Origin: an uncultured Bacteroidota bacterium
GTDB taxonomy: Bacteria; Bacteroidota; Ignavibacteria; Palsa-1295
Direction of reading: 5' to 3'
Assembly: GCA_963702215.1 (NCBI GenBank)
Contig: OY969726.1
Location: 3,288,609 to 3,352,608 of the forward strand
DNA: 64,000 nt
The translations under genes were made by a program, and so were the position numbers. How positions within the stretch are numbered: position 1 is the stretch's first letter; the number at the start of each line of letters is the position of its first letter. The notes under the pieces were generated by a model. It worked only from the letters and a program-made list of their open reading frames with translations. It did not search any database and was not told where the DNA came from. This document shows, one piece after another, positions 4,510 to 54,736 of this stretch.

Positions 4510-4544
4510 CGGGAATAGAACGCCAGCGAACGATAAATCGCGCC

Positions 4545-8863: not shown

Positions 8864-8880
8864 CGATGAGGACAAATGGA

Positions 8881-8913: not shown

Positions 8914-8931
8914 GTCGCATGAAATTCGAGG

Positions 8932-9585: not shown

Positions 9586-9720
9586 AAGCTGGATGGCCGC
9601 ACGCGGTTCCTAAAATGCGGAGCAACCGGCCGCTTGTGGCGAATGGAAAAATTATTAATCGTACCGTAACATTGGGACACGTCACAAAAGTGCTCGCATT
9701 TCGGAACGAATATGCACGAG

Positions 9721-10404: not shown

Positions 10405-10702
10405 AAGCCAGCCCGTGATGCCTCCGATGATGAGTGCGGTAATCAGGAATACGCGTTAACATAGTCAAGCGGTCCCAAAGTCCCCGACGGTTTTGAAAGA
10501 GCCTTAAACGCGCGCGGAAACACTAATTATTATTTTTTTTGAGTTTTCATTTAATGAAACGCATTCATAAATCTCAGGAAGTTCCGCAATTCCAGAAAAT
10601 TCGTGAGAAATTTTATTTTATTTCCCGCCACGCCTCCGGCTCCAAAAGCTGGCTCGGCTTCACGCCGAGGGCTTTCGCGATTTTAACCAAACAATTCCTG
10701 AA

Positions 10703-11305: not shown

Positions 11306-12187
11306 ATGCAAACGATGACAGATATTGATTTCAACGGACACGGAGACGCGGAGTACCTCGACGAACTTTTCGCCGACTATAACACCGCTCTCGGAACGAA
11401 ACTGCTGCTGGATACGGAGGCGCTAAAGGTAATTTATGCAAACGCCGCACCTCTCCGGCCGATCCCCAAATCGGTTACCTGGAAAGGCTGGCGCAGAGCC
11501 GTTGGGCCTCTCTTACTCTTCGTTTGGGCTGCTGTGCTGATGTCGGCTGTTTGGCTGGACGCGCGATTCGAGGTTGCGGGCGAACAGGATTCCGTCCCAG
11601 CGACATTGCACACTGAGGCTTTACCGCAAGTTCAAAGATATTCCTTCGCGCCAATCGAATCCGGGCGTATAAGTTCGCCAAAGCCAATCAACAGCTCTGA
11701 TGCAGGAATGGAAAGCTCAATGCGTGGATCCTTGCCCGCGGCCTCGCAGCTCTTTCGAGCCTCCGCGCTAGTCTATGCCGACAATGCCGATCTCGACTCA
11801 GCCGTGATACACGATCCCAGCCTCGGGCCGGAATGGAGATTGGCCGACTGGAACGACATCGTAAATGTCAGCAAAGACCATCCGATCCAAGAACTTATCC
11901 ATTCGTTGAAGTGGGACTTGGACACGGGCACACATTTCCCGGTCGCGCGGAATCAATTCTGGCTCCAGTACAACGGAAGAAGCACGACACGCAGTGTCGA
12001 GCAGCATTATGGCATCGCTTCTAATGAAGAGAATTCACACAGGCATTATTTCGTCGCGCGATTTGACCACAGAGTGCCTGATAATTTCAGAGTTGTCGCA
12101 GGAATTGAGGATAATGAAATCGTTCTCGGATCATGGTATGACTGGAAGTTCCCGGTGCTCGCAGTAAGGAGAGAATCAGCTCGCTAG
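11306..12187 (+). CDS. putative anti-sigma factor: cytoplasmic N-domain, single TM helix and a periplasmic C-terminal domain
   Basis: Its start abuts the sigma stop (TAA-ATG). One TM helix (GPLLLFVWAAVLMSAVWL). The C-terminal domain (DLDSAV..RLADWNDI...HYFVARFDHRVP...IVLGSWYDWKF) is paralogous to the next gene. Confidence 0.45.
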   Translation: MQTMTDIDFNGHGDAEYLDELFADYNTALGTKLLLDTEALKVIYANAAPLRPIPKSVTWKGWRRAVGPLLLFVWAAVLMSAVWLDARFEVAGEQDSVPATLHTEALPQVQRYSFAPIESGRISSPKPINSSDAGMESSMRGSLPAASQLFRASALVYADNADLDSAVIHDPSLGPEWRLADWNDIVNVSKDHPIQELIHSLKWDLDTGTHFPVARNQFWLQYNGRSTTRSVEQHYGIASNEENSHRHYFVARFDHRVPDNFRVVAGIEDNEIVLGSWYDWKFPVLAVRRESAR

Positions 12188-12213
12188 TTTTCACTTGATG
12201 ATAATTACCTGAA

Positions 12214-12700
12214 ATGAAATCCACTATATTGACAATTTTGGTTCTTAGCGCGCTTCTCGTCGGTGGCTGCAGTGATTCAACCCAACCCTCTTCGGGCGGC
12301 AGCCTCCAATTCGCGACTACGAAAGAAATGTACTCGGAAACGGATAATCTCGACTCGGCAGTCAAGGCGGATCTCGGATCGAGTTACCGCGTGGCTGATT
12401 GGAACCGACGTGGAGGAATATTGCTATCACAACCCTGTGGACAGCCTCATTGCCCACCTCGGCTGGGACGTAATGGGCGCCGCAGGAAGTGATACCACTA
12501 AAGAAAATTTTTTCGTGACCTGGGATAGCCAAGGCTTTACGCCCGATGATCCATCCCGCCATTACTTCGCCACTCGTTTCGATCATACCGTGCCGAGCAG
12601 CTGGGCTGTCCTTGACCAAGTCGATAGCAACCGGATCGTGCTGGGGTCGTGGAATGGGGTGCGGTTCCGGGTGCTCGGGTTGAAAAACGTTTCTCAGTAA
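12214..12700 (+). CDS. lipoprotein carrying the same domain as the anti-sigma C-terminus, split by a frameshift
   Basis: ORF 12214..12492 (lipobox LSALLVGGCSDS; ...NLDSAVKADLGSSYRVADWN) and ORF 12263..12700 (...DVEEYCYHNPVDSLIAHLGWD...HYFATRFDHTVP...IVLGSWNGVRF) together align to the anti-sigma C-terminal domain. The frame switch lies near 12404..12410. Confidence 0.5.
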
Positions 12701-12720
12701 CAAAAAATCAAAACAATACA

Positions 12721-14073
12721 ATGAAATCAACGCTTCTTACACTCGCACTTTTCCTTGCCTTTGTTGTGTGCGCAAAGGCGCAGATACCGACCGATGCTAT
12801 TATCTACTTACGGCTTAACGGCAGCGCTAATGACGCGAGTGGGAATGGCTATAACGGAGTCATTTATGGTACACCCGCTCCGACGGAGGACAGGTTCGGT
12901 GTTCCGGATGGTGCCTATTACTTTAATGCCGGAATGGGTAGTACTGTTTATGGGACCACACCCGGAACGGACTTCATTGATATTCCGGGCACAGAGGGCC
13001 TTAACTTCACTACTGGCGGACTTTCGCTTTGTGGCTGGGTTGAATACTCAGGGTATCTCGATGATCAAGCGATAGTAACCAAGCATGACCCTTGCGGTAT
13101 TCAACAAGGCTATGGCATCGGAATTTGGCATAATCAAGCAGTTTTTATCTATCCCGGAGCCGGCTGCGGGACGGGCGATGATCGAATTCGTTCCGGTCAG
13201 ACGTATGCAGATGGACAATGGCATTTCGTTGTTGGAACTTATGACGGGACCACTTCCAAACTATACGTGGATGGCGTCATGATGAATTCAATTAACAATT
13301 CATATACATGTTACAACAATGGAACGATACGCGTTGCCCGAGCTCACGATTGTGCATTTTTCCCGGGTAAGATCGATGACGTAAGAATCTTCAGTCGGCC
13401 ACTTACGCAATCAGAAATCACATCTCTTTTCCAAGAGGGTAATTGTCTCCCGCCTACGATTTCTGTTTCGCTTTCGCCAAACACACTCTGGCCTCCGAAT
13501 AACAAGATGCAGACAATCACGGCGGATGTTACAACTGCGGGTAATTGCACTCCGCTCAGCGTTCAGTTTCTTTCCGTCACTGCGAATGAGTCGATCGACC
13601 CGAGCGATATCCAAGCGACTAATGGTGAAGATAACAGGACGTTTGAAGTGCGAACCTCACGAAATGGCTATGGGAATGGTCGAGTCTATACGGCAACCTA
13701 TATCGTAACCGATGCGTCGGGTAATTCCGATACCTCAATAGCTACGGTCACCGTCCCGCACGATCGGGGGCTCAGAAGACATCTCGATGGGAACGATCCT
13801 TCGAATAATGTGACGTTCACGGTTTCCGTCCATCCAAATCCTGTGAAAGATCTCGTGCGAATCTGCGTTCCGTACCTGGCCGAAGGAGTGCCGGCAATGG
13901 TTCAGGTAGTCAATGATGCAGGTGAGGCAGTGGCGCAGCTTTATAATGCGACACCTGAAGGCGATCTCGGTCTATGCCTAAGCCTCGATTGCTCGAAGCT
14001 TGCTGCGGGAACCTATTTTGCTTTGTTCAAGGACGGGAACCAGGAACAGTCGGTAAAATTCGCCAAACAGTGA
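12721..14073 (+). CDS. secreted LamG/concanavalin-A-like lectin-domain protein with a T9SS C-terminal sorting domain
   Basis: The ORF is listed from 12649. The likely start is MKSTLLTLALFLAFVVCAKAQ (signal peptide). LamG motifs DGQWHFVVGTYDGTTSKLYVDGV and DDVRIFSRPLTQSEI. C-terminal T9SS domain ...VHPNPVKDLVRICVP...GTYFALFKDGNQEQSVKFAKQ. Confidence 0.55.
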   Translation: MKSTLLTLALFLAFVVCAKAQIPTDAIIYLRLNGSANDASGNGYNGVIYGTPAPTEDRFGVPDGAYYFNAGMGSTVYGTTPGTDFIDIPGTEGLNFTTGGLSLCGWVEYSGYLDDQAIVTKHDPCGIQQGYGIGIWHNQAVFIYPGAGCGTGDDRIRSGQTYADGQWHFVVGTYDGTTSKLYVDGVMMNSINNSYTCYNNGTIRVARAHDCAFFPGKIDDVRIFSRPLTQSEITSLFQEGNCLPPTISVSLSPNTLWPPNNKMQTITADVTTAGNCTPLSVQFLSVTANESIDPSDIQATNGEDNRTFEVRTSRNGYGNGRVYTATYIVTDASGNSDTSIATVTVPHDRGLRRHLDGNDPSNNVTFTVSVHPNPVKDLVRICVPYLAEGVPAMVQVVNDAGEAVAQLYNATPEGDLGLCLSLDCSKLAAGTYFALFKDGNQEQSVKFAKQ

Positions 14074-14104
14074 ATGGCATTTTAATTCCAAACTTTTTGA
14101 TAGA

Positions 14105-14962
14105 ATGAAACAAACCACAACCACCCTTCTTCTTCTCCTCGCGCTCGCCACGAGCGCCAGCGCCCGCATCCGATACGTCGATCCGGCTGGCATACTCGGC
14201 AAGCAATCCATTCAAGCCGTTATCAATGACTGCGTTGATGGAGATACGGTGAGAATTCTCGAAGGAAGCTATCCTGAGAATATCGTGATTCCCTTAAATA
14301 TAGTGGTTCAAGGGGCAGGGGCGGAAAACACCTTCCTCCATTCGAGTACTGGTTACACATGTACAATAACATCGGGAAAGATCATGTGGCTGACCATCTC
14401 TGGCTCAGTTTCAGCAGTCTCAATGCAAGCAGCCACTGTTACAAATTGTATAATTGAGGGCTGTGGCGGCGATGGAATTGACATTGCTGGTAATGGCGCA
14501 AGCGTGGTGAACTGTATAATTCTCGGTAATGGCGTGAGCGGGATCGCGGGTGGAATCGCGGGAGATCCCTCGGGCACTTCGGTCTTTTCAGTTACCAACT
14601 GCATCCTAATTGATAATAAACAGAATTCAATTCACGGTGATTATAGCCAATCTGGCTCCGAACGGTACTGTATTGAGTTCAACAACGCGAGCGGAGCATG
14701 GGGTATGAAGCAAGTCAGTTGTTTGTCATCCGATCCAGTGCTTGCAAGCAATGGGACATGGCATCTTTCCTCTGGATCTCCTTGCATTGATGCTGGTGAT
14801 CCAACGTTGCTCGATCTCGATGGGACTCGCTCGGACATTGGTTATTACGGTGGCCCGGATGCACCACTCATGCCATACATAGCGCCACCTCAGTTCCCAG
14901 CCGGCAGCCTTCAGGCAGATGGCACTATTCAATTCAATCTGACAGGAAAGGTGGGGTATTGA
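14105..14962 (+). CDS. secreted right-handed parallel beta-helix repeat protein
   Basis: Signal peptide MKQTTTTLLLLLALATSASA. Repeated NCII.G.G...I motifs typical of pectin-lyase-fold repeats. Confidence 0.45.
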   Translation: MKQTTTTLLLLLALATSASARIRYVDPAGILGKQSIQAVINDCVDGDTVRILEGSYPENIVIPLNIVVQGAGAENTFLHSSTGYTCTITSGKIMWLTISGSVSAVSMQAATVTNCIIEGCGGDGIDIAGNGASVVNCIILGNGVSGIAGGIAGDPSGTSVFSVTNCILIDNKQNSIHGDYSQSGSERYCIEFNNASGAWGMKQVSCLSSDPVLASNGTWHLSSGSPCIDAGDPTLLDLDGTRSDIGYYGGPDAPLMPYIAPPQFPAGSLQADGTIQFNLTGKVGY

Positions 14963-14963
14963 G

Positions 14964-15785
14964 GTGGGTAAAGCAATCATATTCTTCATTCTGCTTGCAT
15001 GCTGTGTCAATGTCGCGCGAGCACAGCTTCAAACGATTTCGCAAGCGGAATACTTTATCGGAACCGATCCGGGCGAGGGAAACGGACATCCGTTGACGAT
15101 TCCAAAAGGCAATGCGGTTGTTGATACCGCTGCTTGGCACCAAGCAGGGCTGCCACAGCTTAGGTATGGCGAAGTGATTTATGTTCGTATTAAGAGTTCG
15201 GGTTTCCCAAAGCATAGTGATGGCAGTACCGTGCAGGGCGCGTGGAGCTTTCCTACCCCAGTCATATTTCCGACAACTGCTGTGCTACTTAACGCGCAAG
15301 CGAAAATTGTAAGACCGACACTACAATACCCGCTCCTCGAAAATTGGAACATTTTTCCTCTGAGTGGATCGTATGATTCTTCCGTGCAACAATTGCGCGT
15401 AAAAATTCCGGCAGACAGCTTGCTACCAGGCGACACGCTGGAAGTGCGCCTGCAAGGCAAGGACGAACTCTGGGGTGATTGGTCGCACATCCCCATCACG
15501 CAGGATCTGTTCGCGGGCGTTACGGATAACTCAGCATCATCGAACGCGAGCCTCGATATTTATCCGAATCCCGCTCAGAACGAATTCACGATAAGACTTA
15601 CGAATTACCCGAGCGGCCTGGTTCACTACGAAATCTCGGACGCGCTCGGAAGAACGGTGGAGCATGGCGACATGGCTTCCAGCACTCTTCCTCTTTCCAC
15701 GCGCGATCTTCCCGCTGGCGTGTTCACCTTCCGCGTGGTGGCGAATGGCTCCGCCGCCTCGCGGCAGTTCGTGGTGGCGAAGTAG
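14964..15785 (+). CDS. secreted protein with a T9SS C-terminal sorting domain
   Basis: Signal peptide. C-terminus LDIYPNPAQNEFTIRLTNYPSGLVHYEISDALGRTVEH...GVFTFRVVANGSAASRQFVVAK. The gene starts 2 nt after the previous gene. Confidence 0.5.
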   Translation: MGKAIIFFILLACCVNVARAQLQTISQAEYFIGTDPGEGNGHPLTIPKGNAVVDTAAWHQAGLPQLRYGEVIYVRIKSSGFPKHSDGSTVQGAWSFPTPVIFPTTAVLLNAQAKIVRPTLQYPLLENWNIFPLSGSYDSSVQQLRVKIPADSLLPGDTLEVRLQGKDELWGDWSHIPITQDLFAGVTDNSASSNASLDIYPNPAQNEFTIRLTNYPSGLVHYEISDALGRTVEHGDMASSTLPLSTRDLPAGVFTFRVVANGSAASRQFVVAK

Positions 15786-41020: not shown

Positions 41021-42208
41021 ATGCCCACCGCGCCTCCGCAACAATCCGCTTACGACCGTTTCCGCCGAACGAAGTACTTTTCTTCGCTCGATGGCTTGCG
41101 CGCGATCAGCATTCTCGCGGTTATGTGGTATCATGCGCCAGAACTCCGCCCGATCTGGCGAACCGGCTTTCTCGGAGTCCATCTGTTTTTCGTCATCAGC
41201 GGATTTCTGATCACGACAATTCTGCTCCGCGAAAAATCTGATTATGGTCGCATTTCGCTGAAGAATTTCTACATACGCCGCACGCTTCGCATTTTCCCGG
41301 CCTATTATCTCACGCTTGGGCTGTTCCTGGCAGCGTGCCTTGCTACTGTGGAACTTCGCGGCGCGCCGTTCGCTATTTATCTGCACAATCTGCCCTCGTT
41401 CCTCACCTATACCTCGAACTGGTTTGTGTTTCCGGGAGGGTGGTCGCCGGCGAATCCTCACGGGCGGGTGGTTTTTGTAGCGGCATGGTCACTTGCGACG
41501 GAAGAGCAGTTCTATCTTTTCTGGCCGTGGATCGTAGCCTTTACCCGCCGTTGGTTTACTCCCGTCATCGTAATGATTTTGCTCATTGCGGCAAATGAGC
41601 TTATCAAGCTTCGCGATGGCTACTCCTTTTTTCTGACGGGGTTTCCGCTCCCGATCATCATCATCAACAGTGTCGCGACAGCGATTTGCTTAGGCTGCCT
41701 CGCCGCGTATGCCTTGCACCATAAAAAAAGTTTTCGTTTTGCGTGGCGCATCTTTGGGCAGCGTTGGAGTGCTCCGATTTTTATGGCGCTCATGGTCTTG
41801 GTTTGCACCGTTCCGAACGAGGCGTTGCTCTATGTTGGCCGGATGTTCTATATTTGTATCGCCATGACTTTCGCGGTGATCGCGTGTTCGATTCGCGGCG
41901 ATCACGCGCTGGTTCCCGCACTCTCGAATCGAGTCATCCGCTATATTGGGAGCATCAGCTATGGGATGTATCTCTTCCATCCGTTCGGCATCAATCTGAC
42001 GGACAAGTTCTTCGCGTTCTCAAAAAGCTGGCCGGCTCTGCAATTCCTGTTCATCGTCGGAATCACGATGGCAATTGCCTCACTCAGCTATTGGACGTAC
42101 GAGCGATTTTTCTTGAATCTAAAGGCTAAATTTACCGCGGGCCGCGCCGCGCCGAGTGCGAAGCTGGAACCTTTGCCCGCTATTGTGCCCGCCGCTATCG
42201 AAGAATGA
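41021..42208 (+). CDS. acyltransferase family 3 (membrane O-acyltransferase)
   Basis: LDGLRAISILAVMWYHA...GVHLFFVISGFLITTILL matches the acyltransferase_3 signature. Confidence 0.75.
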   Translation: MPTAPPQQSAYDRFRRTKYFSSLDGLRAISILAVMWYHAPELRPIWRTGFLGVHLFFVISGFLITTILLREKSDYGRISLKNFYIRRTLRIFPAYYLTLGLFLAACLATVELRGAPFAIYLHNLPSFLTYTSNWFVFPGGWSPANPHGRVVFVAAWSLATEEQFYLFWPWIVAFTRRWFTPVIVMILLIAANELIKLRDGYSFFLTGFPLPIIIINSVATAICLGCLAAYALHHKKSFRFAWRIFGQRWSAPIFMALMVLVCTVPNEALLYVGRMFYICIAMTFAVIACSIRGDHALVPALSNRVIRYIGSISYGMYLFHPFGINLTDKFFAFSKSWPALQFLFIVGITMAIASLSYWTYERFFLNLKAKFTAGRAAPSAKLEPLPAIVPAAIEE

Positions 42209-44108
42209 CGAGATTGCGATCCACTACGACAACGCCGCTTTGGATCACGACGTGATACACGCCTGCCGGGAGCAGATGAATATCGAGCGAAATGGAATTC
42301 GCGCCGCTCGGCTGGATAGATTCATCGTGGCTCAGGACTTCATTCCCTTTTAGATCGAAGAGGCGAATACGCGCGGTGCGCGCTGCGCTCGAAGAGATGT
42401 TCATGGTGATGGCGTTCCCGCTCGCGGGGTCCGGATCAATCGCGCCGACACTGAATTCATCCGCATCGATGGCCCGCACCGACTCTTGTCCCGCAGCCGG
42501 TGCCGTTAGCGGGCCGGCAACATAGGCGAAAATATCGCCATCGTGGTAGCTGGGCTGGCGGTTTTCCGTCCAACTCGCGACGAAGTAGCTGCCGTAAGCA
42601 TCACTTGTAGCATAATCGCCAACGAAATCCCCGCCCTCCGCCGTGACGGTCAGAGGATTGAATAAATCAGAGCCCATTGTATTCAGTGTGGCGGGCGAAT
42701 TGTAGTTACACCAAACAGCGCGTGACTTCACGTTCAGTACCGTATCCTCCTCCGAGCTGCTCATCGAAATATACGCGGAATGCGTAACCGGGTCGATCGC
42801 CACCCACGGCATGTAGTGATCGTTGTTGATGCTTGACCTTGTGCCGATTTGTGCCGGAGCGCTCCAATCCTTGCCCAAATCGGTGGAACTAATCTCGTAC
42901 AACGCCGCGTCGGCGTTGAATTCGTCGTAGGTTCCATAGACGGCACGGATGGTGTTGCCAGAATCCACATCGAAGCAAGGATACGGCGAGGCGCGGAATC
43001 CATTCGGCCCTTTCAATCCGTTACGGCCCTGGTCGATCGGCGGAAAATCGGTGAAGGCATGCATCGGATAATCCTGAAACGTGGCGCCACCATCGGTAGA
43101 AATGCTCATTCCTTCGCTCTTGTCCGTAACCGTGGAATCGGTAATCGTTCCATAGTAGTGCATCGATGCGATGAACGCCGTTCCATGCTGGCCGACTCGC
43201 AGCAGTGCAAAATCGCCATAATAGGTGGAAAAAGGCATGGGCGAGGACCACGTCACGCCATGATCGTCGCTGTGGGCAACATAATGGATGGCAGAGTCCG
43301 CCAGAGTATTTCCTGTGTTATCATACTCGGTCCATGCGATATAGAGCCGGCCGTGATAGGGACTCGAGGGATCGTTGTCCACCGCGATGGTTTCCTTGTC
43401 TTCGAAGGCATTATTATTTTGATTCCCAACGACAGGGTTCCCAAGCGTCCAGTGTATGCCATCGGTGCTGTGCGCAACCATCAGATCGGAATATCCACCC
43501 AGTTCCGGATACATCAGGAACGAATAGTAGAACATGCCGGCATCATTGCAGACGATCATCGGGTCGCCCCATTCCTCCGCACCGGGATCGTTGGTTGCCA
43601 GCGGCAAGCGGTACGTTTTCCAGGTAAAGCCGCCATCCGACGTGAGGTAGGCGGGCATGCCCAGCGTATTCATGCCTGTTGCTTGACCATTCGATTTCAT
43701 TTCGAGATCGTTGGCGCCAGCGACGATCAGATTCGGGTTCCTGCGGTTAATCGCGATGCTCGGTTCGTCCTCATCCTCGATGGAGCGGCTAATATCAGTG
43801 TGAATATTGGTGTCGATCGATTGAACGGTAGCATCGTTCTTACCATGATTGGCATTGCCGGAACCGTAGCCCAACCCGAGCGCGAGCGCCGCCTTGCAAT
43901 TGATCCATCGCGAAAATCCATCGCAGGCATGGTAAAGCGTCAGTCCATGTGGGTAAGCCGCAAGCTCCTTTTGCACCTGCGCCTGGAACGCGGAATCCGC
44001 GCCACTTGGCGCGATGCCAGCCGCCGTGCGGCTTTGCGCGCGAGTTCCGGGCGAATAAAGCGTGACTGCCGCAAGAAAAACGGCAACCGAGAAGCGAAGA
44101 CTTTTCAT
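42195..44108 (-). CDS. secreted BNR/Asp-box repeat (sialidase/sortilin-like) protein with a T9SS C-terminal sorting domain
   Basis: Signal peptide MKSLRFSVAVFLAAVTLYSPGTRAQ. Asp-box motifs STDGIHWT, SDDHGVTWS, STDGGATF, STDLGKDWS. C-terminal T9SS domain ...RIRLFDLKGNEVLSHD...AGVYHVVIQSGVVVVDRNLVILR. Confidence 0.6.
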   Translation of the reverse strand: MKSLRFSVAVFLAAVTLYSPGTRAQSRTAAGIAPSGADSAFQAQVQKELAAYPHGLTLYHACDGFSRWINCKAALALGLGYGSGNANHGKNDATVQSIDTNIHTDISRSIEDEDEPSIAINRRNPNLIVAGANDLEMKSNGQATGMNTLGMPAYLTSDGGFTWKTYRLPLATNDPGAEEWGDPMIVCNDAGMFYYSFLMYPELGGYSDLMVAHSTDGIHWTLGNPVVGNQNNNAFEDKETIAVDNDPSSPYHGRLYIAWTEYDNTGNTLADSAIHYVAHSDDHGVTWSSPMPFSTYYGDFALLRVGQHGTAFIASMHYYGTITDSTVTDKSEGMSISTDGGATFQDYPMHAFTDFPPIDQGRNGLKGPNGFRASPYPCFDVDSGNTIRAVYGTYDEFNADAALYEISSTDLGKDWSAPAQIGTRSSINNDHYMPWVAIDPVTHSAYISMSSSEEDTVLNVKSRAVWCNYNSPATLNTMGSDLFNPLTVTAEGGDFVGDYATSDAYGSYFVASWTENRQPSYHDGDIFAYVAGPLTAPAAGQESVRAIDADEFSVGAIDPDPASGNAITMNISSSAARTARIRLFDLKGNEVLSHDESIQPSGANSISLDIHLLPAGVYHVVIQSGVVVVDRNLVILR

Positions 44109-44394
44109 GTTCGTTTGAAAAAAGTGAAACCCTCTAAATAGAAGACCCGCGAAACGGCAAAAGGTAACAGCCTTTTCGAAGAATTATTCCCTGAAAATGA
44201 AGCAGCGTTCATGCCGCCCAGTGCCGGAGGCACGCAGTAGCCCCGAAGGGGGGAAGTACCCGCAGCCCAGAGCCTGCCCTCGACCCGATCGCGGGTGGAA
44301 CGAAGTGGAACCCTGGGTACGCAAAGCCATCATAACCCGTTAGCCCTGCAAGGGCGATGTACGCCGATTCAGTCCCGTTAGGGACGGCATATTC

Positions 44395-44567
44395 GTAGCC
44401 CAGTGCGTAAGCGCTGGGATTGGGATTGAAAAAAGATTCCATAGCTCCGTAGGAGCGATATATTCCCCGCGTGATAATATGCCGCTCCTACGGAGCTTGG
44501 GATTCTTTGGCTTTTCGCAACCCAGCGCTTACGCACTGGGCTACGAATATTGCACTCCTACGGAGCT
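44395..44567. repeat. large nested inverted repeat (~65-nt arms) immediately after the last small ORF of the island
   Basis: Arm 1 at 44395..44457 consists of block A (GTAGCCCAGTGCGTAAGCGCTGGG), a spacer, then block B (AGCTCCGTAGGAGCG). Arm 2 at 44483..44544 is its reverse complement, with blocks A and B perfect and the middle divergent. A third B-like copy lies at 44553..44567. Confidence 0.6.
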
Positions 44568-44693
44568 GGGATTCGTTCCCCCCACAATCCTGATTTCCTC
44601 CGCGCTTAAACCGTAAAGCTGATAGACGAGTGTATCGATCTCCGCACGCGCGCCCGCGATCTGTCGGGTGAGGAGGGTGCGATCAGACATGCA
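44541..44693 (-). other. 50-aa ORF that consists only of the conserved C-terminal tail of a Type II/IIG N6-adenine methyltransferase (remnant)
   Basis: MSDRTLLTRQIAGARAEIDTLVYQLYGLSAEEIRIVGGTNPSSVGVQYS. It is about 80% identical at the nucleotide level to the 3' end of the R-M gene at 45751..45860. Its ATG overlaps the stop of the 203-aa ORF (ATGTCTGA). Confidence 0.4.
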
Positions 44694-45294
44694 TGAGTTC
44701 TCGGAACTTTGCCTCGACCTCGTGCCTGGTCGCTGCAATCTGACTCTCCAATAAAAGCAGCGCCTGTTGCGAAGTCTTAACAATGTCCAGCTGGCTATTC
44801 GCTCCAACACCAACGCCATACAAAGCATTTTGGAGCGGCGCAAAGGCGGCATCAATTTCGGAACGAAGTTTGTCGATTTGCTCGCAGAGCGAATCATTCA
44901 GCCAAATTTTGTTCGATTCATATGAAGCAACGAAATCTTTCAGGGCGTGCAAGAAATCATCCGCCTTAGGCCATTTGCTTTCGTGAGCCTCACCGGGAAC
45001 ACGTATAAGGTCCCTTCCTTTGCCAAACACCTGCGACAACTTAGAATATAGTTCCTTAAATACAACACCCTGTTCCTCTCGTAATCGAGCCAACCGGATC
45101 TCGTCCCACTTGTTGTTTCGGGCTATTTCACCTTTCAATTTTTCCAGTTCTCGATTTGAAGCACTGGCTAATTCGTTTTTGTATTTTTCCAAACCTTTCT
45201 CGGCTACCACTTCAGCCCGCTTCTTCACATAAGCGGGTATTCCGATCACTATCACAGCGAGAAGCGCTATGTCGATAATGTTTGATATGCTCAT
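44683..45294 (-). CDS. hypothetical membrane-anchored coiled-coil protein (cassette gene in the R-M island)
   Basis: 203 aa. N-terminal TM helix IIDIALLAVIVIGIPAYV, then Lys/Glu-rich coiled-coil. Its ATG overlaps the stop of an upstream R-M tail fragment (ATGA). Confidence 0.45.
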   Translation of the reverse strand: MSISNIIDIALLAVIVIGIPAYVKKRAEVVAEKGLEKYKNELASASNRELEKLKGEIARNNKWDEIRLARLREEQGVVFKELYSKLSQVFGKGRDLIRVPGEAHESKWPKADDFLHALKDFVASYESNKIWLNDSLCEQIDKLRSEIDAAFAPLQNALYGVGVGANSQLDIVKTSQQALLLLESQIAATRHEVEAKFRELMHV

Positions 45295-45400
45295 GCTTTT
45301 CCCTCCACTATCCTAATTTCCTCCTCGCTCAAACCGTAAAGCTGGTAGACGAGATTATCGATCTCCGCGTCCACGCCCGCGATGTGGCGGGTGAGGATAA
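45291..45400 (-). repeat. second copy (~92% identical) of the R-M gene 3' tail, an in-frame remnant encoding ...LTRHIAGVDAEIDNLVYQLYGLSEEEIRIVEGKA*
   Basis: Aligns to 45751..45860, the true 3' end of the R-M gene. It is preceded on the - strand by a terminator hairpin. Confidence 0.6.
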
Positions 45401-45429
45401 TAAAAAGGGCATACAATGATGTATGCCCT
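45396..45429 (-). terminator. rho-independent terminator for the - strand
   Basis: Read on the - strand: AGGGCATACA-TCAT-TGTATGCCCT followed by TTTTTATTAT. This is a 10-bp stem plus a T-run, downstream of the small SD-led ORF. Confidence 0.6.
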
Positions 45430-45437
45430 AAGTGGTA

Positions 45438-45599
45438 TCAAGTTTTCTTGACCCATGTCGCTCCGTGCGCGTTAGCATCGCCATTCACATTACACGGAGG
45501 GAACGTTTCCCCTGACTTAATGTAGATGGTATGAGTAGTGTGTTTCGAACAGTAATAAGTACCGCTAGATTCACATTTACCTCCCGTAGATCCGGTCAT
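45438..45599 (-). CDS. small (53 aa) Cys-containing protein with a canonical Shine-Dalgarno sequence
   Basis: AAAGGAGGTGATTAA-ATG; MTGSTGGKCESSGTYYCSKHTTHTIYIKSGETFPPCNVNGDANAHGATWVKKT, stop TGA. Not in the ORF track because it is under 60 aa. It sits in an AT-rich stretch immediately downstream of the R-M gene. Confidence 0.5.
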   Translation of the reverse strand: MTGSTGGKCESSGTYYCSKHTTHTIYIKSGETFPPCNVNGDANAHGATWVKKT

Positions 45600-45750
45600 T
45601 TAATCACCTCCTTTCATTAGCAATTATTATCACTCATGTTCAGTGAGTGCTAATATATTAACTATGTTTGGAGCCAAGTGAATCCTCGAAAACACGGTTG
45701 TTTATCCACATAAATGATAACGACTTCCCGTTTTTCCACATTCTAAAAAA

Positions 45751-48700
45751 TCAACCCTCCATTATCCTAATTTCCTCCTCGCTCAAACCGTAAAGCTGGT
45801 AAACGAGTTTATCGATCTCCGCATCCACGCCCGCGATCTGGCGAGTGAGGAGGGTGCGATTCTGGCCATCGCTCATCTTTTTAAGTTGGTTATGCAGATC
45901 GATTTCCCTTTCAACGTATTTTTCCATCAGCTTTATCTGCTTCGTTGAAACATCTTTTGGTACGGGAATCTTTCGCAAATCGCCGACCGATAATCGCGGA
46001 AAGGCATTCGCTACCATCTTGTTCGAAATGTACGGGTAAATTCTTGAGATTAATGTGGAATCTAAAATTCCCACAAGATATTTCATTGAGTAGTCGGATT
46101 CGGGAAGTGGATTGATGTTGAGGATGGTCTTGTAATTACAATATGTATCCTCCGTGTACGTTGCTTGCAGTGCGTGGGGTTGCTTTCCCGATATTTCGCG
46201 AATCAGAATTCTTGGCCCTTGTAGCCAGTCCATCGTTCGGTAATCGTGAAGCCAGGGGCCGTACTTAATCCACTGGCCTCTCACCCTCTCAAGCTCATAG
46301 CGAGAAACGTCACTACCCGCAAGCTCTGGAAGATATTCGGAAGACAGCTTTTTATCGGCATGAAAAACTCTGTTCTCGATTTGTTGTTTTGTGTGCTTAG
46401 AACTATTGTATGCCTGGCATCCGAGCGAAGCACGCGCGACCGTTCCCAGCGGAATCGATTGCTTTAGGATTTGATCCGCGAGTTTTCCCATAGGATCCAT
46501 CCTTCTCGTCTCAATGATGTGTCCTTCGTTTTTAAACCAATCAATCTGCTTTGCGTGGTATTCTTGCCCGCTCGTAGGATCGGAATCGGCGTCGATAACA
46601 CGCACTTCGTGCGAATCGCTGGCTACTATTTTCGAAAGAAAGACCAGCGCCGTGTTTACGGTTGCGGACTCGAAAACGAATCCTTTGAATGTTACGAGTT
46701 CGTCTATCTGAGTCTTTTCAAGAATATACTTCCTTAAGGACTTGGTAAAGACCTGAGTAAGCCAAGGATTTGGAACGATAAATCCAAGCTTTCCTTCTGG
46801 CTTGAGCAGTTCTATTCCTCGTTCGATAAAAAGCTGAAATAGGTCTGCCTTGTATTCTGCTGTTCCGAAGTGTAATAAATATTTGGCGGTTCTAGCATCG
46901 AACAGGTCTTTACCTATAACCACATACGGCGGGTTCCCAATGACGACATCGAAGCCGCCGTTTCGCATAATATCGGGGAAGGCTTGCTTCCAGTCCATCG
47001 GATTTATTTTGGCGGTGTCCGGGGAATAACCACCCCCTGCCCCCTCCTTGAAAAGGAGGGGGTTGTTGTAGTAATCGGTTCCGATGAGGGAGTTGCCGCA
47101 GAGGATGTTCCGGTCGAGATCGGGGAGCAGTCGCTCGGCGGTGTCGTAGGCAATGCGCTGGGTTCCTCCGTCGCTCCCGCCGCTCTCTCCGCCTTCGAGG
47201 ACTTTGAGCATCAAATTCAGCTTCGCCACTTCCACCGCGTTCCTGTCAATATCGACGCCGTGAATGTGGTCGAGCAAGATGCGCTTCCGCTCGCGCGGGG
47301 AAAGGCGATAATCTTTTTTCGTGGGGTCGGAAGTGGGAATGCGGTCGAGAACTTTCTTTTTTGTCCAGGATTCCGGCTCATTGGCGAGATAGAATTTGAG
47401 ATACCAATCGAGTAAATACTGATACGCTCCGAGCAGGAAGGAACCGGAGCCGCAGGCGGGATCTAAAATTGTGGGTGTGGGACATGCTTTAGCTTGTCCC
47501 TTCTTATCTTTGGACCAAGCTAAAGCATGGTCCACACCCAGCATTTTTCCGACGGTATTCTTCACAATATAATCGACAATATAGCTCGGCGTGTAATAGA
47601 CGCCGCCGGCTTTTTTTACTTCGGGCTTTTCTTCGACGCGGGCGTTGCCGCCTTTCGTCAGCGTGATGACTTGTCCCAGGAACTGCTCATACACGTGGCC
47701 CAGAATATCCGAGGGAACGATATCGAATGCATACGGACTTTCGGGATAATAAAGATGCCTGATGATGTCGGTGAGCACTTTATCGTCAATGGCAAGTCGC
47801 GGGGTGAGCGCGTCGAATCCTTCGCGGCTCTTCTCTTTCCTGAAATGGAAGAGACCGGAATTGAAGCGGTCGTCGGCGGCGCGGAAACGGTTGAGGAGAT
47901 TCTGGTAAACAGAACCAACCACCCCCCGTCCCCCGCCTTGAAAAGGCGGGGGAGTTTTTGTTTTTTGGGTTCCGTCTATGAGATAGCGCAGCCTGGCGTC
48001 GAGGGCAAGGTTCCCATATTGCTCGATCTTTCGGTCCCTCGCAGATGCGGAGCATGATAATGCGGTCGAGCGTAATTTGCACGGCGCTGTTTAGCTCGGA
48101 TTCGGACAGCCCTTTGTTGCGGAGCGCGATATTTTCGGCAAGCTTCTTTCGCCAGGCGATCATATCGGCGAGGAACTGTTTATCGAAGGGCGTGGTGCCG
48201 CGCTTGCCTTTTGCCTGCGCGGCGTATTTATCGAAGCGTCCTTTCCAGACGGCTTCGCGGGAAAACGTTTCCACGAGCCAGTCCCATTTCTCTTCGTACT
48301 GTTCGAAGTTGAAAAATTCGATGCGGTCTTTATAGGGCGCGTCGGTGGGTTTGGGAACGGAAGTAGTTTGATAAACGGCGAATTCCTCGAAATCGGAAAG
48401 CAGTGAGATGGAAAGTCCGGCGCTCCAGGCGTAGCGTTTCAATTGATAGGCCGGCGCGACGTCCGTTGCGAGGTGAACTTTGGGCGCTTTGCATTCGAGA
48501 AAGAATTTCTTCTCGCTGCCCACGCGGAAGGTATAATCGGGAGCCTTCATTGCGCCTTCAATGCGAAGCGAATCCTCGTGGATGACCTCTTTGTAGGCTT
48601 CGGCGAGTCCGGCACGATTCGTCATATCCCATCCGAGTTCCCACCAGAAGGGATTGATAAATTCCTCCCGAAGCTGCGCTTCTTTGTATTGGGCGCTCTT

Positions 48701-48766
48701 ATAGGATTCGCGGTGATCGCGAAACCGCTCGACGAGATCCTGAATTGTGCGAGGAAACATGTACAA
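45751..48766 (-). CDS. Type IIG restriction-modification enzyme (MmeI/Eco57I-like): N-terminal endonuclease, gamma-class N6-adenine methyltransferase and C-terminal target-recognition region, split by a frameshift
   Basis: ORF 47786..48766 gives the N-terminal nuclease domain (FINPFWWELGWD...LDRIIMLRICE). In a -1 frame it continues as DRKIEQYGNLALDARLRYLIDG...VVGSVYQNLLNRFRAADDRFNSGLFHF into ORF 45751..47922 (motif I DPACGSGSFLLGAYQ, motif IV DVVIGNPPYV, conserved tail LVYQLYGLSEEEIRIMEG). There is an extra G in the GGG run near 48036. Confidence 0.8.
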
Positions 48767-49104
48767 AAATACGAAAACATTGAACCTGGATCACGCGAAT
48801 GATCGCTCATCCGCTGCGGATTGGATGGATTTTCGGGATTACTATCGGAAAAAACGAAGAGTTCCAGTCCAAGGGGAACTATTAGATACGTATCTTATGT
48901 TTGATATTATGGAAGGGTTGTATTCGTTAAATGATTCGTATCTTTCATGAAGAAAGGATTGTGATTCTTTGAGAAATAAATATTGGTTCATGAACACGCA
49001 TCCAACACACACTATAAAACATTTTGGGCTTCTTTCTAGCAGAATGAAAAAATCAAACGTGCTCATTATGGATTTTTCCGATTTTTCTTCACTGCCTTCC
49101 CAGT

Positions 49105-50499
49105 TTATGCCCCGTATTTCTCCGGCCACAGCGCCTTCAATCGTTGCAGAATCGTCTTTTCGCGGCCTTGCTCGGTGGGGTGGTAGAAGACTTTATCCTG
49201 GAGCGATTCTGGTAGATACGTTTCGCCTTTGGCGAAATGTCCGGGCTCGGAGTGGGCATAGCGGTAACCTTCGTGGTAACCTAATTCCTTCATGAGCTTT
49301 GTTGGCGCATTGCGGAGATGAAGTGGCACCGGCTGGTCGGGATTTTGGCGGGCTTCTTCCATTGCCGCGCCGATGGCAACGGTCGTCGCATTGGATTTGG
49401 CCGCGGATGCGAGATATGCAACCACCTGCCCGAAAATAAGCTGCGCCTCGGGGTAACCGACGGCACGGACGGCATCCCAGCAGGCCGTGGCGAGCAGGAG
49501 CGCATTGGGATCGGCATTGCCGATGTCCTCGCTGGCGAAGATAATCATGCGGCGGGCGATGAATTCCAAATCCTCGCCGGATTCGATCATGCGGGCGCAC
49601 CAATAGAGCGCGGCGTTGGGATCCGATCCGCGCATGGATTTGATGAAGGCACTGATGATATTATAATGCTCCTCGCCGGCTTTATCGTAACGGGAAGCTT
49701 TTCGCCCGAAGGCGGCTTCGATGGTTTCAACGGTAAGGCCGAGCGAGGACGCTCGACCTACGCGTAGGTCGGTCGTCCTCGCCCGACTCTCCGGTTCTGC
49801 AAGCTGCACGGCGAGTTCCAGGGCGTTCAGCATCTTGCGAGCATCGCCGCCGGAAAGGGCCATGAGGGCGCGGCGAACATCTTCGGAGAGCGTAATGTCG
49901 AGCGATTTTAGTTCTTCGTCTTCTTTTAAGGCGCGGTCGAGCAGCGTTTCCAAATCTTCGCGTGAGAGACGTTCGAGCACGAAAACGCGGGCGCGGGAAA
50001 GCAGCGGCGAGATAACTTCGAAGGAGGGATTTTCCGTCGTCGCGCCGATAAGAGTTACCACACCGTGCTCGACCGCGCCCAAAAGCGCATCTTGCTGCGA
50101 TTTCGAGAAGCGGTGGACTTCGTCAATAAAAAGCACGCTCCGGTCTTCGGCGGTCGTGTTCGCTTCGCGCGCTTGTTCGATAGCCTCGCGCAAATCCTTG
50201 ACTCCGGCGCTGATGGCCGAAAGCGAAAAAAATGGCGCGCGGACCGAGCGAGCGAGAATATTCGCAATCGTCGTCTTGCCGGAACCCGGCGGACCCCAAA
50301 AGATCATCGAGTGCAGCTTGCCGCGCTCGATCATCATGCGGAGCGGCTTTCCTGGACCGACGAGCGCGCGTTGCCCCACAACTTCGTCTAAGGTTCGCGG
50401 GCGCATTCGTTCCGCGAGGGGAAGGAAGGAATGTGGATGGGTAAGCGCTAATGGGTCGGTTTCCGAGCATTCGAGCTTTGGTTGCTTTTGTCGTGGCAT
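49105..50499 (-). CDS. rarA: replication-associated recombination protein A (AAA+ ATPase MgsA/RarA)
   Basis: Walker A GPPGSGKTT, Walker B VLFIDEVHRF, and a MgsA C-terminal domain. Confidence 0.85.
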   Translation of the reverse strand: MPRQKQPKLECSETDPLALTHPHSFLPLAERMRPRTLDEVVGQRALVGPGKPLRMMIERGKLHSMIFWGPPGSGKTTIANILARSVRAPFFSLSAISAGVKDLREAIEQAREANTTAEDRSVLFIDEVHRFSKSQQDALLGAVEHGVVTLIGATTENPSFEVISPLLSRARVFVLERLSREDLETLLDRALKEDEELKSLDITLSEDVRRALMALSGGDARKMLNALELAVQLAEPESRARTTDLRVGRASSLGLTVETIEAAFGRKASRYDKAGEEHYNIISAFIKSMRGSDPNAALYWCARMIESGEDLEFIARRMIIFASEDIGNADPNALLLATACWDAVRAVGYPEAQLIFGQVVAYLASAAKSNATTVAIGAAMEEARQNPDQPVPLHLRNAPTKLMKELGYHEGYRYAHSEPGHFAKGETYLPESLQDKVFYHPTEQGREKTILQRLKALWPEKYGA

Positions 50500-50517: not shown

Positions 50518-51228
50518 TCAACCAATTCTTTCGAGTGCTAATTCATATACGCGCTCCACCTGCCCTTCGATGGTCAGGTTCGTCGTATCGACTTGGGTAG
50601 CATCCGACGCTTTTCGAAGTGGGGAAATGGTGCGCTCGCGGTCGCGGTTGTCGCGTTCTTCGAGTTGCTGTCGCAATTCTTCAAGCGGAATATGAGTTCC
50701 CATCCGTTCAAATTCAAGCTGGCGCCGTTCGGCGCGCACTTGGGCATCGGCCACGAGAAAAATCTTAAGTTCCGCATCTGGAAACACGACCGTTCCTATA
50801 TCGCGTCCTTCCAGGACGACACCACCATCCCTGCCGATTGTCCGCTGTTTTTCGACGAGCTTCGCCCGCACCGCTGGATCGACGGAAAGCTCGCTCGCCA
50901 GCAGTGCAATATCGGGTTCCAGAATTTCTCGCGAGACATCCGCGCCATCCAGCATGATTTTGCCGTCGGAACCAAAGCCAATCTCCGCTTCCGAAAGTAA
51001 TTCGTGGATTCGTTCCGAATCGTGGCCGTGATGATCGCGCCGCCGGACCAGCAGCGCGAATGCGCGGTACATCGCGCCCGTATTCAGATGAAGATACCCC
51101 AGCCGCGCGGCAACTTGTTTTGCCGTCGTGCTTTTGCCGGAGGCCGTCGGGCCATCGATCGCAATGATGATGCCATTGTTCCGCATTCCAAATAACGAGT
51201 AACGAGGCGGAAGTACCGAGTCGTTCAA
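50518..51228 (-). CDS. cmk: cytidylate kinase
   Basis: IIIAIDGPTASGKSTTAKQVAARLGYLHLNTGAMYRA. Confidence 0.85.
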   Translation of the reverse strand: MNDSVLPPRYSLFGMRNNGIIIAIDGPTASGKSTTAKQVAARLGYLHLNTGAMYRAFALLVRRRDHHGHDSERIHELLSEAEIGFGSDGKIMLDGADVSREILEPDIALLASELSVDPAVRAKLVEKQRTIGRDGGVVLEGRDIGTVVFPDAELKIFLVADAQVRAERRQLEFERMGTHIPLEELRQQLEERDNRDRERTISPLRKASDATQVDTTNLTIEGQVERVYELALERIG

Positions 51229-51926: not shown

Positions 51927-52094
51927 AAGTTCCCGTGGAAGTGAGTGCATGATTACTCATACACGATGAGATTATTTCAAATTTGAAAGCCTAATTCAAA
52001 ATCGCTGACCGGTCACGCGCGGAACGAAGGAATGCTGCATGAGAAGAGATTCCATGCAAGAGACGCGCCGAAGGGCGCGTCTCCAAGAATACTG

Positions 52095-52168
52095 CGGAGC
52101 GGACGGGACTCGAACCCGCGACCTCCTACGTGACAGGCAGGCGTTCTAACCAGCTGAACTACCGCTCC
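52095..52168 (-). tRNA. tRNA-Asp (anticodon GTC)
   Basis: The reverse complement reads GGAGCGGTAGTTCAGCTGGTTAGAACGCCTGCCTGTCACGTAGGAGGTCGCGGGTTCGAGTCCCGTCCGCTCCG. This is near-identical to bacterial tRNA-Asp, with anticodon loop CTGTCAC. Confidence 0.85.
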
Positions 52169-52237
52169 AGTACCAGATTGTGTCGATGGAAGCTCCTGCT
52201 TCCATCGGGGAAACAGTGGCGTCCCCTACACGCACTG

Positions 52238-52310
<73 letters not shown>

Positions 52311-52637: not shown

Positions 52638-53081
52638 TCAGAGCTGGCTTCGCAGCCGCTCGCTTGCGCTCGAACCGAAATCCCCGGAGCCAAAGTCCGA
52701 TTCATCCTCGTAGGCTCGCGGAACGTATCCGCTTTCCTCGAATTCATCGCCAGAGAAGAAATCCTTGATCGGCTCGGTTGCGCGACTCAGCAAATCCCGA
52801 ACGAAATCCGTTTGCAGCAGGCCATAGCAGATCGCCCCGATCGCGATGCCCCCCACCGCCCACGGAACCCAGCCCGGCAGTCTGCTGGATGGCTTGGTGG
52901 TTTTGCCCATGCGACCGCTCCTCAAATCGAATTCCGATCCGTCCAGCATCGATCGCGATCCTTCGAAGCTTTTCGTGTGCGTCCCGTTGTGTGATATCGT
53001 CCGTGCAATTGGCATAATGACTTCAATAAAAATTTTAAAAGCTGATTGCAAGGCTAATGCCATTTGCTCCGGCGCGGTCAT
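52638..53081 (-). CDS. small hypothetical membrane protein with an acidic C-terminal tail
   Basis: Single TM helix GWVPWAVGGIAIGAICYGLL. The C-terminus is rich in Asp/Glu/Ser/Gly. Confidence 0.3.
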   Translation of the reverse strand: MTAPEQMALALQSAFKIFIEVIMPIARTISHNGTHTKSFEGSRSMLDGSEFDLRSGRMGKTTKPSSRLPGWVPWAVGGIAIGAICYGLLQTDFVRDLLSRATEPIKDFFSGDEFEESGYVPRAYEDESDFGSGDFGSSASERLRSQL

Positions 53082-53533
53082 TACGAGCCGCTCTTCGAGA
53101 AAACTGGCAAATGCCTGCGCCCGCGTTTGCGCTCATAAAATATGTCTTTTCCGAGCCAATTTCGCCACTCCGACTTTGTGGCTTTCTTTTTTTTGAATTT
53201 TCAGTTAATGAACTTTTGGACAGTTCCACTATTTTCGAATTTTTTCTTTCATAATTCATAATTGGCCCAAAAGGTGCCCATAAATGACGGTGCTAATATA
53301 ATATATTCAAATCGCAATGTCAAGAGGCCGGGCGATTATTTCTGAAATATTTTGATGCGGCGTTCCACAGCCCGCTGCGCCGGGCGGCATATTTGTAACC
53401 CTAGGTTCACCCGCACCCAGTCAAGCTGAGGGCGAGCTCAGGCTATAACTATTTCATCTCGGTGGGACTTGAGGTAATTTCCAGGATGGATTTTGCTGCA
53501 CAGCATGTTCTGCCGCCAAAATTATAGCATATC

Positions 53534-54736
53534 ATGTACGGAAAAGTCAAAGAGGAATTAACGAAGGAACTTCAGGCCATTCGGGACGCCGGTCTTTATA
53601 AGAACGAGCGGGAGATTACCACGCCGCAGGGTGTCGAAATCAAAGTCAAAGGTTCCGACAAAACCATTCTCAATTTTTGCGCGAATAATTATCTCGGGCT
53701 GTCGTCGCACCCGAAAGTGATCGAGGCGGCGCGGCGCGCGCTCGATACGCACGGCTACGGGATGTCCAGCGTGCGGTTTATTTGCGGCACGCAGGATTTG
53801 CACAAAGAGCTGGAACGCGAAATTTCGCGATTTTTGGGAACCGACGATACCATTCTTTACGTAGCCTGCTTCGATGCGAACGGCGGCGTGTTCGAGCCCC
53901 TTTTCGGTGAAGAGGATGCGATCATTTCGGACGAGTTGAATCACGCCTCCATCATCGATGGCGTCCGGCTCGCGAAAGCGAAGCGATTCCGTTACAAACA
54001 TGCCGATATGCGCGATCTCGAAGCGCAGTTACTGGATGCGCAATCCGCGCGGCGGCGCGTCGTCGTTACCGATGGCGTGTTTTCGATGGATGGCGATATT
54101 GCGAAGCTCTCGGAAATTTGCGATCTTGCCGATAGGTACGATTCGCTCGTGATGGTGGATGATTCCCATGCGACTGGCTTCGTCGGCAAAACGGGCCGAG
54201 GTTCCATCGAGCATGAAAATGTGATGGGCCGTGTCGATATGATTACTTCCACCTTAGGCAAAGCGCTGGGCGGCGCGGCGGGAGGGTTTACTTCGGGAAG
54301 GAAAGAGATTATCGAGATGCTCCGTCAGCGTTCGCGGCCGTATCTTTTTTCGAATACGCTTCCGCCGCCCATTGCCGGCGCCGCGCTCGAAGTTATTCAC
54401 ATGCTCGAATCCACGACGGAACTGCGCGACAAGCTCGAATCCAACACCCAATACTTCCGGGAACGAATGACCGAAGCCGGATTTGACATCAAGCCGGGAA
54501 TTCATCCCATCGTGCCGATCATGCTCTACGATGCGCCGCTCGCGCAGAAATTCGCCGCGCGTTTGCAGGACGAGGGAATTTATGTCACGGGATTTTTCTA
54601 CCCTGTCGTCGCCAAAGGGCAAGCACGTATTCGCGTCCAGATTTCCGCCGCGCACGAGCGGCATCATCTCGATCAGGCTATCGAGGCATTCACCAAAGTT
54701 GGCGAGGAGCTGGGCGTGCTGAAAGTAATGGCGTGA
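53534..54736 (+). CDS. kbl: glycine C-acetyltransferase (2-amino-3-ketobutyrate CoA ligase)
   Basis: Nearly collinear with E. coli Kbl: [56 protein letters not shown] (PLP-lysine). Confidence 0.9.

Follow-up and report, generated by a model that had tools for sequence, protein, structure and literature searches.

How a restriction-modification (R-M) gene of Type IIG came to lie between rarA and a BNR-like gene is the question raised by the DNA analyzed here, a 64-kb stretch of contig OY969726.1 from an uncultured Bacteroidota bacterium (hereafter the window). A sequence-only reading had proposed that positions 44110-49104 form a low-GC, horizontally acquired defense island. Our analysis favors a related but narrower explanation, to which we assign a probability of about 0.78: the segment 44192-49111 is a small R-M islet that was gained by horizontal transfer at a variable spot downstream of rarA, and it carries a mosaic gene with a rebuilt 3′ end whose restriction activity has probably been lost. 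The coordinates of all features are collected in Table 1.

The islet was delimited by comparison with the closest relative available, a forest-soil contig (L194) whose RarA is 88% identical to that of the window. The gene order cmk, rarA, BNR gene (with a Por_Secre_tail domain for the type IX secretion system, T9SS), acyltransferase gene on the opposite strand and a further gene is common to both, and all genes from cmk through the BNR gene lie on the minus strand of the window. Only 70 nt separate rarA from the BNR gene in L194. A blastn comparison aligned L194 positions 4011-7067 with window positions 52169-49112 (75% identity) and L194 positions 7096-11291 with window positions 44191-39991 (71.5% identity); collinearity ends at 49112 and restarts at 44191, with 28 unaligned nucleotides in L194 against 4,920 in the window. 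The border on the rarA side falls within the last rarA codons, which encode a terminal EKYGA in the window and EKYGPRQQ in L194, and the other border lies immediately upstream of the conserved BNR promoter. The synteny comparison that the sequence-only reading had suggested for the BNR-rarA junction therefore returned an empty site, which supports a horizontally acquired islet between these two genes. The extent originally proposed was slightly too generous, since positions 44110-44191 are BNR-promoter sequence conserved in L194 and lie outside the islet.

Six further relatives (L199 among them) have no R-M gene adjoining rarA, and the content 3′ of rarA differs among them; in relatives other than L194 (RarA 84-87% identical), rarA is preceded by a different gene and followed by variable content. 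Homologs of the R-M gene elsewhere sit in unrelated neighborhoods, in many contexts and phyla. The closer RarA relatives were obtained from a large protein collection and not from species-representative genomes, among which the best RarA relatives were 68-80% identical and had no gene order in common with the window. Exact-sequence look-ups of the window proteins found no record. In L199, about 5 kb of extra genes lie between rarA and HslV/HslU (positions 9406-15305), among them genes for an HD-CE protein of 1,073 aa and for a PIN-domain toxin that has small partners. This suggests that the 3′ side of rarA is a recurrent integration spot in this Kapabacteria-like clade.

The identification of the R-M gene as Type IIG, already made in the sequence-only reading, was borne out by profile searches. 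The gene product matched REase_MTase_IIG (PDLC03604) in PADLOC over residues 7-740 (2.2e-173) and, in Pfam, Eco57I (4.6e-40; 137.9 bits against a cutoff of 25.3), N6_Mtase (3e-21) and MmeI_Mtase, whereas a TaqI_C match at residues 813-935 (8.7e-14) marks the C-terminal target recognition domain (TRD). Residues D77, E91 and K93 of the PD-(D/E)XK nuclease, methylase motif I (DPACGSGSF, 435-443) and motif IV (NPPY, 611-614) fall on invariant columns of the family alignment, and the family comprises thousands of homologs of ~960-1000 aa, the best of which are 53-56% identical. Judged from these matches and motifs, the gene encodes a Type IIG enzyme with a predicted N-terminal PD-(D/E)XK nuclease, a gamma-class N6-adenine methyltransferase and a TaqI_C-type recognition domain. 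Eco57I/MmeI-type enzymes methylate their own asymmetric site and cut unmethylated incoming DNA at a fixed distance. The window gene resembles them in domain order, catalytic motifs and Pfam matches (Eco57I, MmeI_Mtase, TaqI_C), but its open reading frame (ORF) is interrupted.

The interruption, which is absent from the sequence-only reading, is a +1 frameshift caused by one extra G in a GGG run. The result is two ORFs, one of 326 aa for the nuclease (47786-48766) and one of 723 aa for the methylase and TRD (45751-47922). With one G dropped, the sequence reads LRICEDRKIEQYG, in agreement with the family consensus FLRICEDRGIE, and the gene has 1,004 codons with no other stop and with all motifs intact. 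All activities are expected on one uninterrupted polypeptide in a Type IIG enzyme, and in this respect the window gene departs from the class, although the split may be an assembly error. As sequenced, restriction would probably be lost, with at most methylation left.

An alternative that we regard as possible, if doubtful, is that the frameshift arose in sequencing or assembly and that the Type IIG enzyme of this locus is fully active. The frameshift is the lone lesion of the gene and lies in a run of three G, and the source is a single 3.58-Mb contig, suggesting a long-read assembly. Against this alternative, the deposited genome carries the same split ORF (gene call P0001, 675 aa, 100% identical), and R-M decay commonly begins with a single frameshift. 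Frameshifted R-M genes have been noted previously (PMC2853133). The locus is an ordinary, probably horizontally acquired R-M islet that is probably decaying. A donor search by metagenome scan with the C-terminal half of the gene returned full-length matches of no more than about 55% identity and fragments of up to 66%, and no relative turned up that has this R-M gene but lacks the cargo.

The 3′ end of the R-M gene carries the traces of later rearrangement. Its last ~100 nt are present three times in direct orientation, in the layout tail 1, cargo A, tail 2, cargo B, tail 3, where tail 1 is the working 3′ end of the gene and tails 2 and 3 are orphan copies; the sequence-only reading had correctly noticed repeated R-M tail fragments. 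Tails 1 and 2 are the closest pair (~94% identity over 96 nt), and tail 3 is 87% identical to tail 1 and 80-85% identical to tail 2. The similarity of all three ends at one 3′ point, after GGAGGG (V/M-E-G). This shared limit is simply the end of the conserved coding sequence; more can be learned from the 5′ borders of the orphans: tail 2 starts directly after the terminator-like hairpin of cargo A, and the 5′ border of tail 3 lies 8 nt further upstream in tail coordinates than that of tail 2. Tails of about 97-106 nt flank both cargo A and cargo B, which are inserts without mobility genes, and direct repeats of more than 30 bp around such inserts are expected of insertion with long target duplication. 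The stop codon of tail 2 overlaps the start codon of ORF203, the 203-aa ORF that constitutes cargo B, in an ATGA. Such a stop/start overlap is the usual mark of two genes translated as a pair, and given this overlap ORF203 looks like a former downstream partner, once stop/start-coupled, of an R-M gene that has been reduced to tail 2.

Taken together, the tails look like recombination scars of serial 3′-end insertion or displacement and not like working parts. The simplest history would comprise three steps. The R-M gene and ORF203 would first have formed an operon; cargo A would then have been inserted at the gene end with duplication of ~100 nt, giving rise to tails 1 and 2; and the resulting block would have been joined to the tail of another allele (tail 3), either by homologous recombination on one side and an illegitimate joint on the right, or by a second insertion with long duplication. 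The 3′ end of the R-M gene would have been rebuilt at least twice, each round adding a short foreign unit and displacing the last ~100 nt downstream.

The R-M gene itself, as the comparison of its two parts with their homologs shows, is a module mosaic that switches partners at NPPY. Across 119 homologs, the higher the identity to residues 1-600, the lower the identity to residues 601-960 tends to be (Spearman -0.41 to -0.49). The N-terminal part is 64-71% identical to P0063, P0047 and P0053, and this likeness collapses right after GNPPYV, whereas the C-terminal part is nearest to another set of proteins (e.g., P0008 and P0010), which stay similar past NPPY. The GC content at third codon positions (GC3) has its best change point at codon 613, inside NPPY, where it falls from 0.646 to 0.501 (chi-square p 1.6e-5).

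Base composition had been an argument of the sequence-only reading, and it stands in part. The GC content of 44110-49104 is 0.490 against 0.538 for the whole window, and with 4,995-nt windows across the 64 kb averaging 0.537 (sd 0.015; minimum 0.489 at 44301), this is essentially the lowest-GC 5-kb stretch present. The drop is not uniform, since 44110-44700 and 46951-48766 are backbone-like, and the backbone, described earlier as high in GC, is moderate at 54%. The AT-rich examples that had been given held up in cargo A and in the 338 nt upstream of the R-M gene, a non-coding stretch that contains no convincing ORF and one sigma-70-like site (49038-49011) and is presumed to be the R-M promoter region. 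Composition is atypical in 44701-46950 and in this spacer, and not in 46951-48766 or 44192-44700.

The step inside the gene bears on a further alternative, namely that the R-M gene was already resident and that the low-GC block of about 44700-46930 (recognition half, tail 1, cargo A, tail 2 and ORF203) later replaced its 3′ part, crossing over on the left within conserved NPPY sequence and joining on the right at the start of a resident tail 3. The change point of GC3 and the switch of nearest relatives coincide precisely at NPPY, tail 3 is richer in GC (0.594) than tails 1 and 2 (0.52-0.54), and the host-lineage hairpin elements described below are confined to the N-half, all of which agrees with such a replacement. 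We nevertheless consider it rather unlikely, because a drop in GC3 from the N to the C part across NPPY is seen in 16/16 close family members (L081-L108), with gaps of 0.07-0.31 in hosts of 30-67% GC, and the mosaic may predate arrival. In P0063 (L081) the two values, 0.648 and 0.503, are near-identical to those of the window gene. An interpretation of the step as a recent second low-GC import was downgraded for the same reason. The step is a trait of the modular gene family and shows that NPPY is where its modules are shuffled, but it does not show when or where this occurred for the window gene, and since it is family-wide, the backbone-like GC of the N half is no evidence of long residence. 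A caution follows for similar loci: a step in composition within a modular R-M gene should not be taken as a dated transfer event. A GC3 of ~0.65 was also observed for the N-half in three hosts of 43-54% GC.

Relative to its homologs, the R-M gene contains three in-frame palindromic insertions, of which two are copies of a 36-nt element composed of a GC hairpin and a G-run (CCCCCGCCTTTTCAAGGCGGGGGACGGGGGGTGGTT). Copy 1 is missing from the closest N-half homologs, and P0063 has a degenerate copy at the site of copy 2. We rejected the possibility that the element is specific to the R-M family, since identical DNA occurs inside the rarA of relatives: L202 rarA carries a 36/36 identical element at 8345-8380 (plus strand) and an inverted second copy at about 8396-8428 (minus strand), and L199 rarA carries a variant at about 8718. 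Peptide footprints of the element (TPPPFQGGGRGVV and TPPPL[KR]EEGAGGW) were found in 6/120 RarA homologs. The element thus belongs to the host lineage and enters tolerant loops of proteins in frame, a behavior that resembles that of Rickettsia palindromic elements. Similar elements were seen in or beside the R-M homologs of L198 (four copies), L108 and L111. The third insertion is the longest inverted repeat of the window and lies in a hypervariable, insertion-prone linker before methylase motif I. A linker of rarA likewise holds a 68-nt palindrome (49729-49796; 34-nt arms, 76% complementary); the window RarA is ~10 residues longer there than that of L194, and the same loop holds the hairpin element in L202 and L199.

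The cargo genes differ from host genes in several respects. Both have Shine-Dalgarno (SD) motifs, which precede few real gene starts in the window, and their GC3 values are 0.44 and 0.50, whereas host genes have 0.59 +/- 0.05; both genes are likely of foreign origin. The sequence-only reading had singled out a small ORF with a strong and, for this genome, atypical SD site, and this 53-aa ORF of cargo A is, as its homologs show, a real gene of an unnamed small-protein family. A search found 60 cluster representatives for it at E<=1e-3, among them stand-alone proteins of 50-57 aa that are 53-59% identical, and the family shares the pattern TG.KC..SG.Y.C..H....I..G.TFPPC....HG..W. Its score against YjzC (PF14168) was 17.4 bits, under the gathering threshold of 25, and its relatives scored 14-23.5 bits. 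Members of the family also occur as tandem C-terminal domains of membrane-anchored proteins of ~220-233 aa (P0122-P0124 and P0127). ORF203, earlier described as a hypothetical membrane protein, indeed has a single N-terminal hydrophobic segment (hydropathy 2.3 over residues 1-19). Its AlphaFold model is all-helical with a pLDDT of 61.5, a low confidence that is too weak for a fold search, and the protein is accordingly a predicted membrane-anchored one with an all-helical body. Among 5.8 billion clusters, ORF203 found no homolog but itself.

Neither cargo gene matched a family above threshold in PADLOC, Pfam or NCBIfam, and a defense role for them is unsupported. A defense island would hold at least two recognized systems side by side, whereas here only the R-M gene, itself frameshifted, matches a defense family in PADLOC. 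Of the proposed horizontally acquired defense island, acquisition is therefore retained and the designation as a defense island is not.

The direction of the change between the window and L194 is what we infer from this one empty site together with indirect evidence, and several observations weigh against a gain or against parts of the history proposed above. The empty site is known from L194 alone, with no same-flank outgroup. In comparison with L194, no direct repeats or att-like sites were found at the islet borders; no integrase or transposase is present among the islet ORFs; and there is no tRNA target at the islet, the nearest tRNAs lying 3 kb off. The 5′ 60% of the R-M gene is backbone-like in GC, and because the GC3 step is family-wide, composition says little about the arrival time of the gene. 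The copies of a host-lineage hairpin indicate that the gene has either been resident in the lineage for a while or came from a related donor. The frameshift, which lies in a homopolymer of three bases, may be an artifact of assembly, and a second tail was found in 1 of about 76 other family loci (L111) on metagenome and viral contigs.

Part of this evidence would also fit an ancestral presence of the segment here followed by its deletion in the lineage of L194, with no horizontal gain at this site: there is one empty-site genome, the islet has neither mobility genes nor border repeats, and the N-half of the R-M gene is backbone-like in GC and carries host-lineage hairpin elements. We consider this highly unlikely given that six further relatives lack an R-M gene near rarA, that the cargo genes are low in GC and SD-led, unlike host genes, and that homologs of the R-M family occur in many unrelated contexts and phyla. 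Acquisition of the islet by horizontal transfer remains the favored explanation.

The tail arrangement is matched independently in L111, an unrelated metagenomic contig in which an R-M gene with its tail is followed by an AT-rich 488-aa ORF and then by a 198-nt orphan tail of 88% identity. This recurrence, though rare, speaks for the favored explanation. It also raises the possibility that the conserved last ~35 codons of the Type IIG family are a recurrent landing pad, at which small foreign genes and surrogate tails stack as arrays. We hold this to be distinctly unlikely; if true, it would amount to a recombinase-free, homology-anchored collecting of accessory genes, possibly defense-related, behind R-M genes, as in the window and L111. 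Least probable of all is that the tails are attachment sites and that units of tail plus cargo, once excised as circles, are captured at Type IIG 3′ ends, which would accord with the mere 8 nt between the 5′ borders of tails 2 and 3 and with the recurrence of the tail-cargo-tail layout in L111 but is opposed by the lack of a recombinase in or near the units, the variation of repeat length between loci (about 100 vs 198 nt), the occurrence of the layout in only 2 of about 78 loci, and 3′ repeat ends that merely mark the end of conserved coding sequence. The L111 unit occupies positions 2187-4296; its 488-aa ORF carries an R-x4-H motif and was assigned to no family by PADLOC, Pfam or NCBIfam, a GC hairpin element lies at the joint between cargo and orphan tail, and two tRNA-like sequences lie just downstream.

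Table 1. Features of the R-M islet and its flanks (window coordinates)
Feature	Position	Strand	Remarks
BNR-like gene, T9SS-sorted	42195-44108	-	
Compositional segment	44110-44700		GC 0.548, backbone-like
Islet	44192-49111	-	4,920 nt not present in closest relative L194
Nested palindrome	44371-44567		central hairpin 44430-44510 between two inverted Acido-Lenti-1-like modules
Acido-Lenti-1-like module	44371-44418	-	
Acido-Lenti-1-like module	44521-44567	+	
Tail 3, orphan copy	44578-44683	-	begins at ORF203 stop codon
Cargo B, ORF203 (203 aa)	44683-45294	-	GC 0.466
Compositional segment	44701-46950		GC 0.455, lowest 2.25-kb stretch, z about -4
Tail 2, orphan copy	45301-45406	-	stop overlaps ORF203 start (ATGA)
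Terminator-like hairpin of cargo A	45406-45429		after 53-aa ORF
Cargo A	45407-45750	-	GC 0.407
53-aa ORF	45438-45599	-	behind SD site AGGAGGTGA
Type IIG R-M gene	45751-48766	-	1,004 codons after removal of one G; likely start ATG at 48760
Tail 1, working R-M 3′ end	45755-45860	-	ends in ...RTLLTRQIAGVDAEIDKLVYQLYGLSEEEIRIMEG and stop
NPPY codons 611-614, module boundary	46924-46935	-	
Compositional segment (5′ 60% of R-M gene)	46951-48766		GC 0.537, backbone-like
36-nt element, copy 2	47028-47062	-	other reading frame (PLLFKEGAGGG), compensatory stem change
In-frame palindrome	47465-47547	-	83 nt, 32-nt arms, 88% complementary
36-nt element, copy 1	47917-47952	-	in frame, peptide TPPPFQGGGRGVV
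+1 frameshift, one extra G	48036-48038 (GGG run)	-	
AT-rich non-coding stretch upstream of R-M gene	48767-49104	-	GC 0.373, 338 nt; lowest 340-nt stretch of window
rarA	49105-50499	-	
cmk	50518-51228	-	

The locus has counterparts among published cases. Insertion with long target duplication was reportedly described by Nobusato in 2000. R-M insertions and deletions, long target duplications (one of them inside a methylase gene) and substitution of Type IIG recognition domains have been published (Furuta et al. 2010, PMC2853133). As in those insertions and deletions, an R-M gene stands here against a short empty site in a relative, with atypical composition and no mobile-element genes. The islet differs in that its borders show neither a long target duplication nor an inverted repeat, and in that the comparison was made between genera or species at ~73% DNA identity and not between strains. 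The tails are like long target duplications in being direct repeats of ~100-200 nt, far beyond the target duplications of transposons, around DNA without mobility genes. Unlike in the published cases, it is the 3′ end of the R-M gene itself that serves as target, small non-R-M genes are inserted and two serial events are involved; the repeats, moreover, may be either duplicated target or donor-borne tails. The allelic substitution of recognition domains (PMC2853133) is comparable in that the nuclease-methylase part is conserved and the C-terminal recognition part has a different history, although in our case this emerges from incongruent nearest relatives across a metagenomic family and not from alleles at one locus.

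A further parallel is offered by Rhs and type VI secretion system (T6SS) loci, in which C-terminal ends are displaced, with homology-facilitated illegitimate recombination as the proposed mechanism (PMC5361080). In the effector-immunity arrays of Rhs/CdiA and T6SS loci, as in the window, a conserved 5′ anchor is retained while new 3′ modules with a downstream gene displace older remnants. The orphans of the window, unlike those of the arrays, keep only the last ~35 codons and are not re-expressible as alternative modules, and the genes downstream of them are not known immunity genes.

For defense biology, the islet is a routine case, a small and probably decaying R-M islet in an uncultured Kapabacteria-like lineage. 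Its value lies in serving as a clean worked example of locus assembly, in which an empty site in a relative, a module switch precisely at NPPY and the successive displacement of 3′ ends can all be followed. Among the by-products, the 36-nt hairpin element has the greatest potential; it is found in frame both in the RarA of relatives and in the R-M enzyme of the window.

The terminal nested palindrome noted in the sequence-only reading was recovered by a repeat search at 44389-44550, and the predicted RNA fold of 44360-44580 has an energy of -128.6 kcal/mol (z -13.5). Its two modules scored 34.7 and 27.7 bits against Acido-Lenti-1 in Rfam (RF01687), below the gathering score of 37, with both hairpins and the linker aligning. 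Acido-Lenti-1 has been described from Acidobacteria and Lentisphaerae, a range that does not include the phylum of the window. No other copy of the palindrome was found in the window or in the fetched loci, and Rfam matches to miRNA families were dismissed as palindrome artifacts, far below threshold. Elsewhere in the window, two more stretches of lowered GC, at about 0.48-0.49 per kb, were observed at 12600-15000 and 52700-54000, the latter adjoining tRNA-Asp and tRNA-Ala genes (52094-52310).

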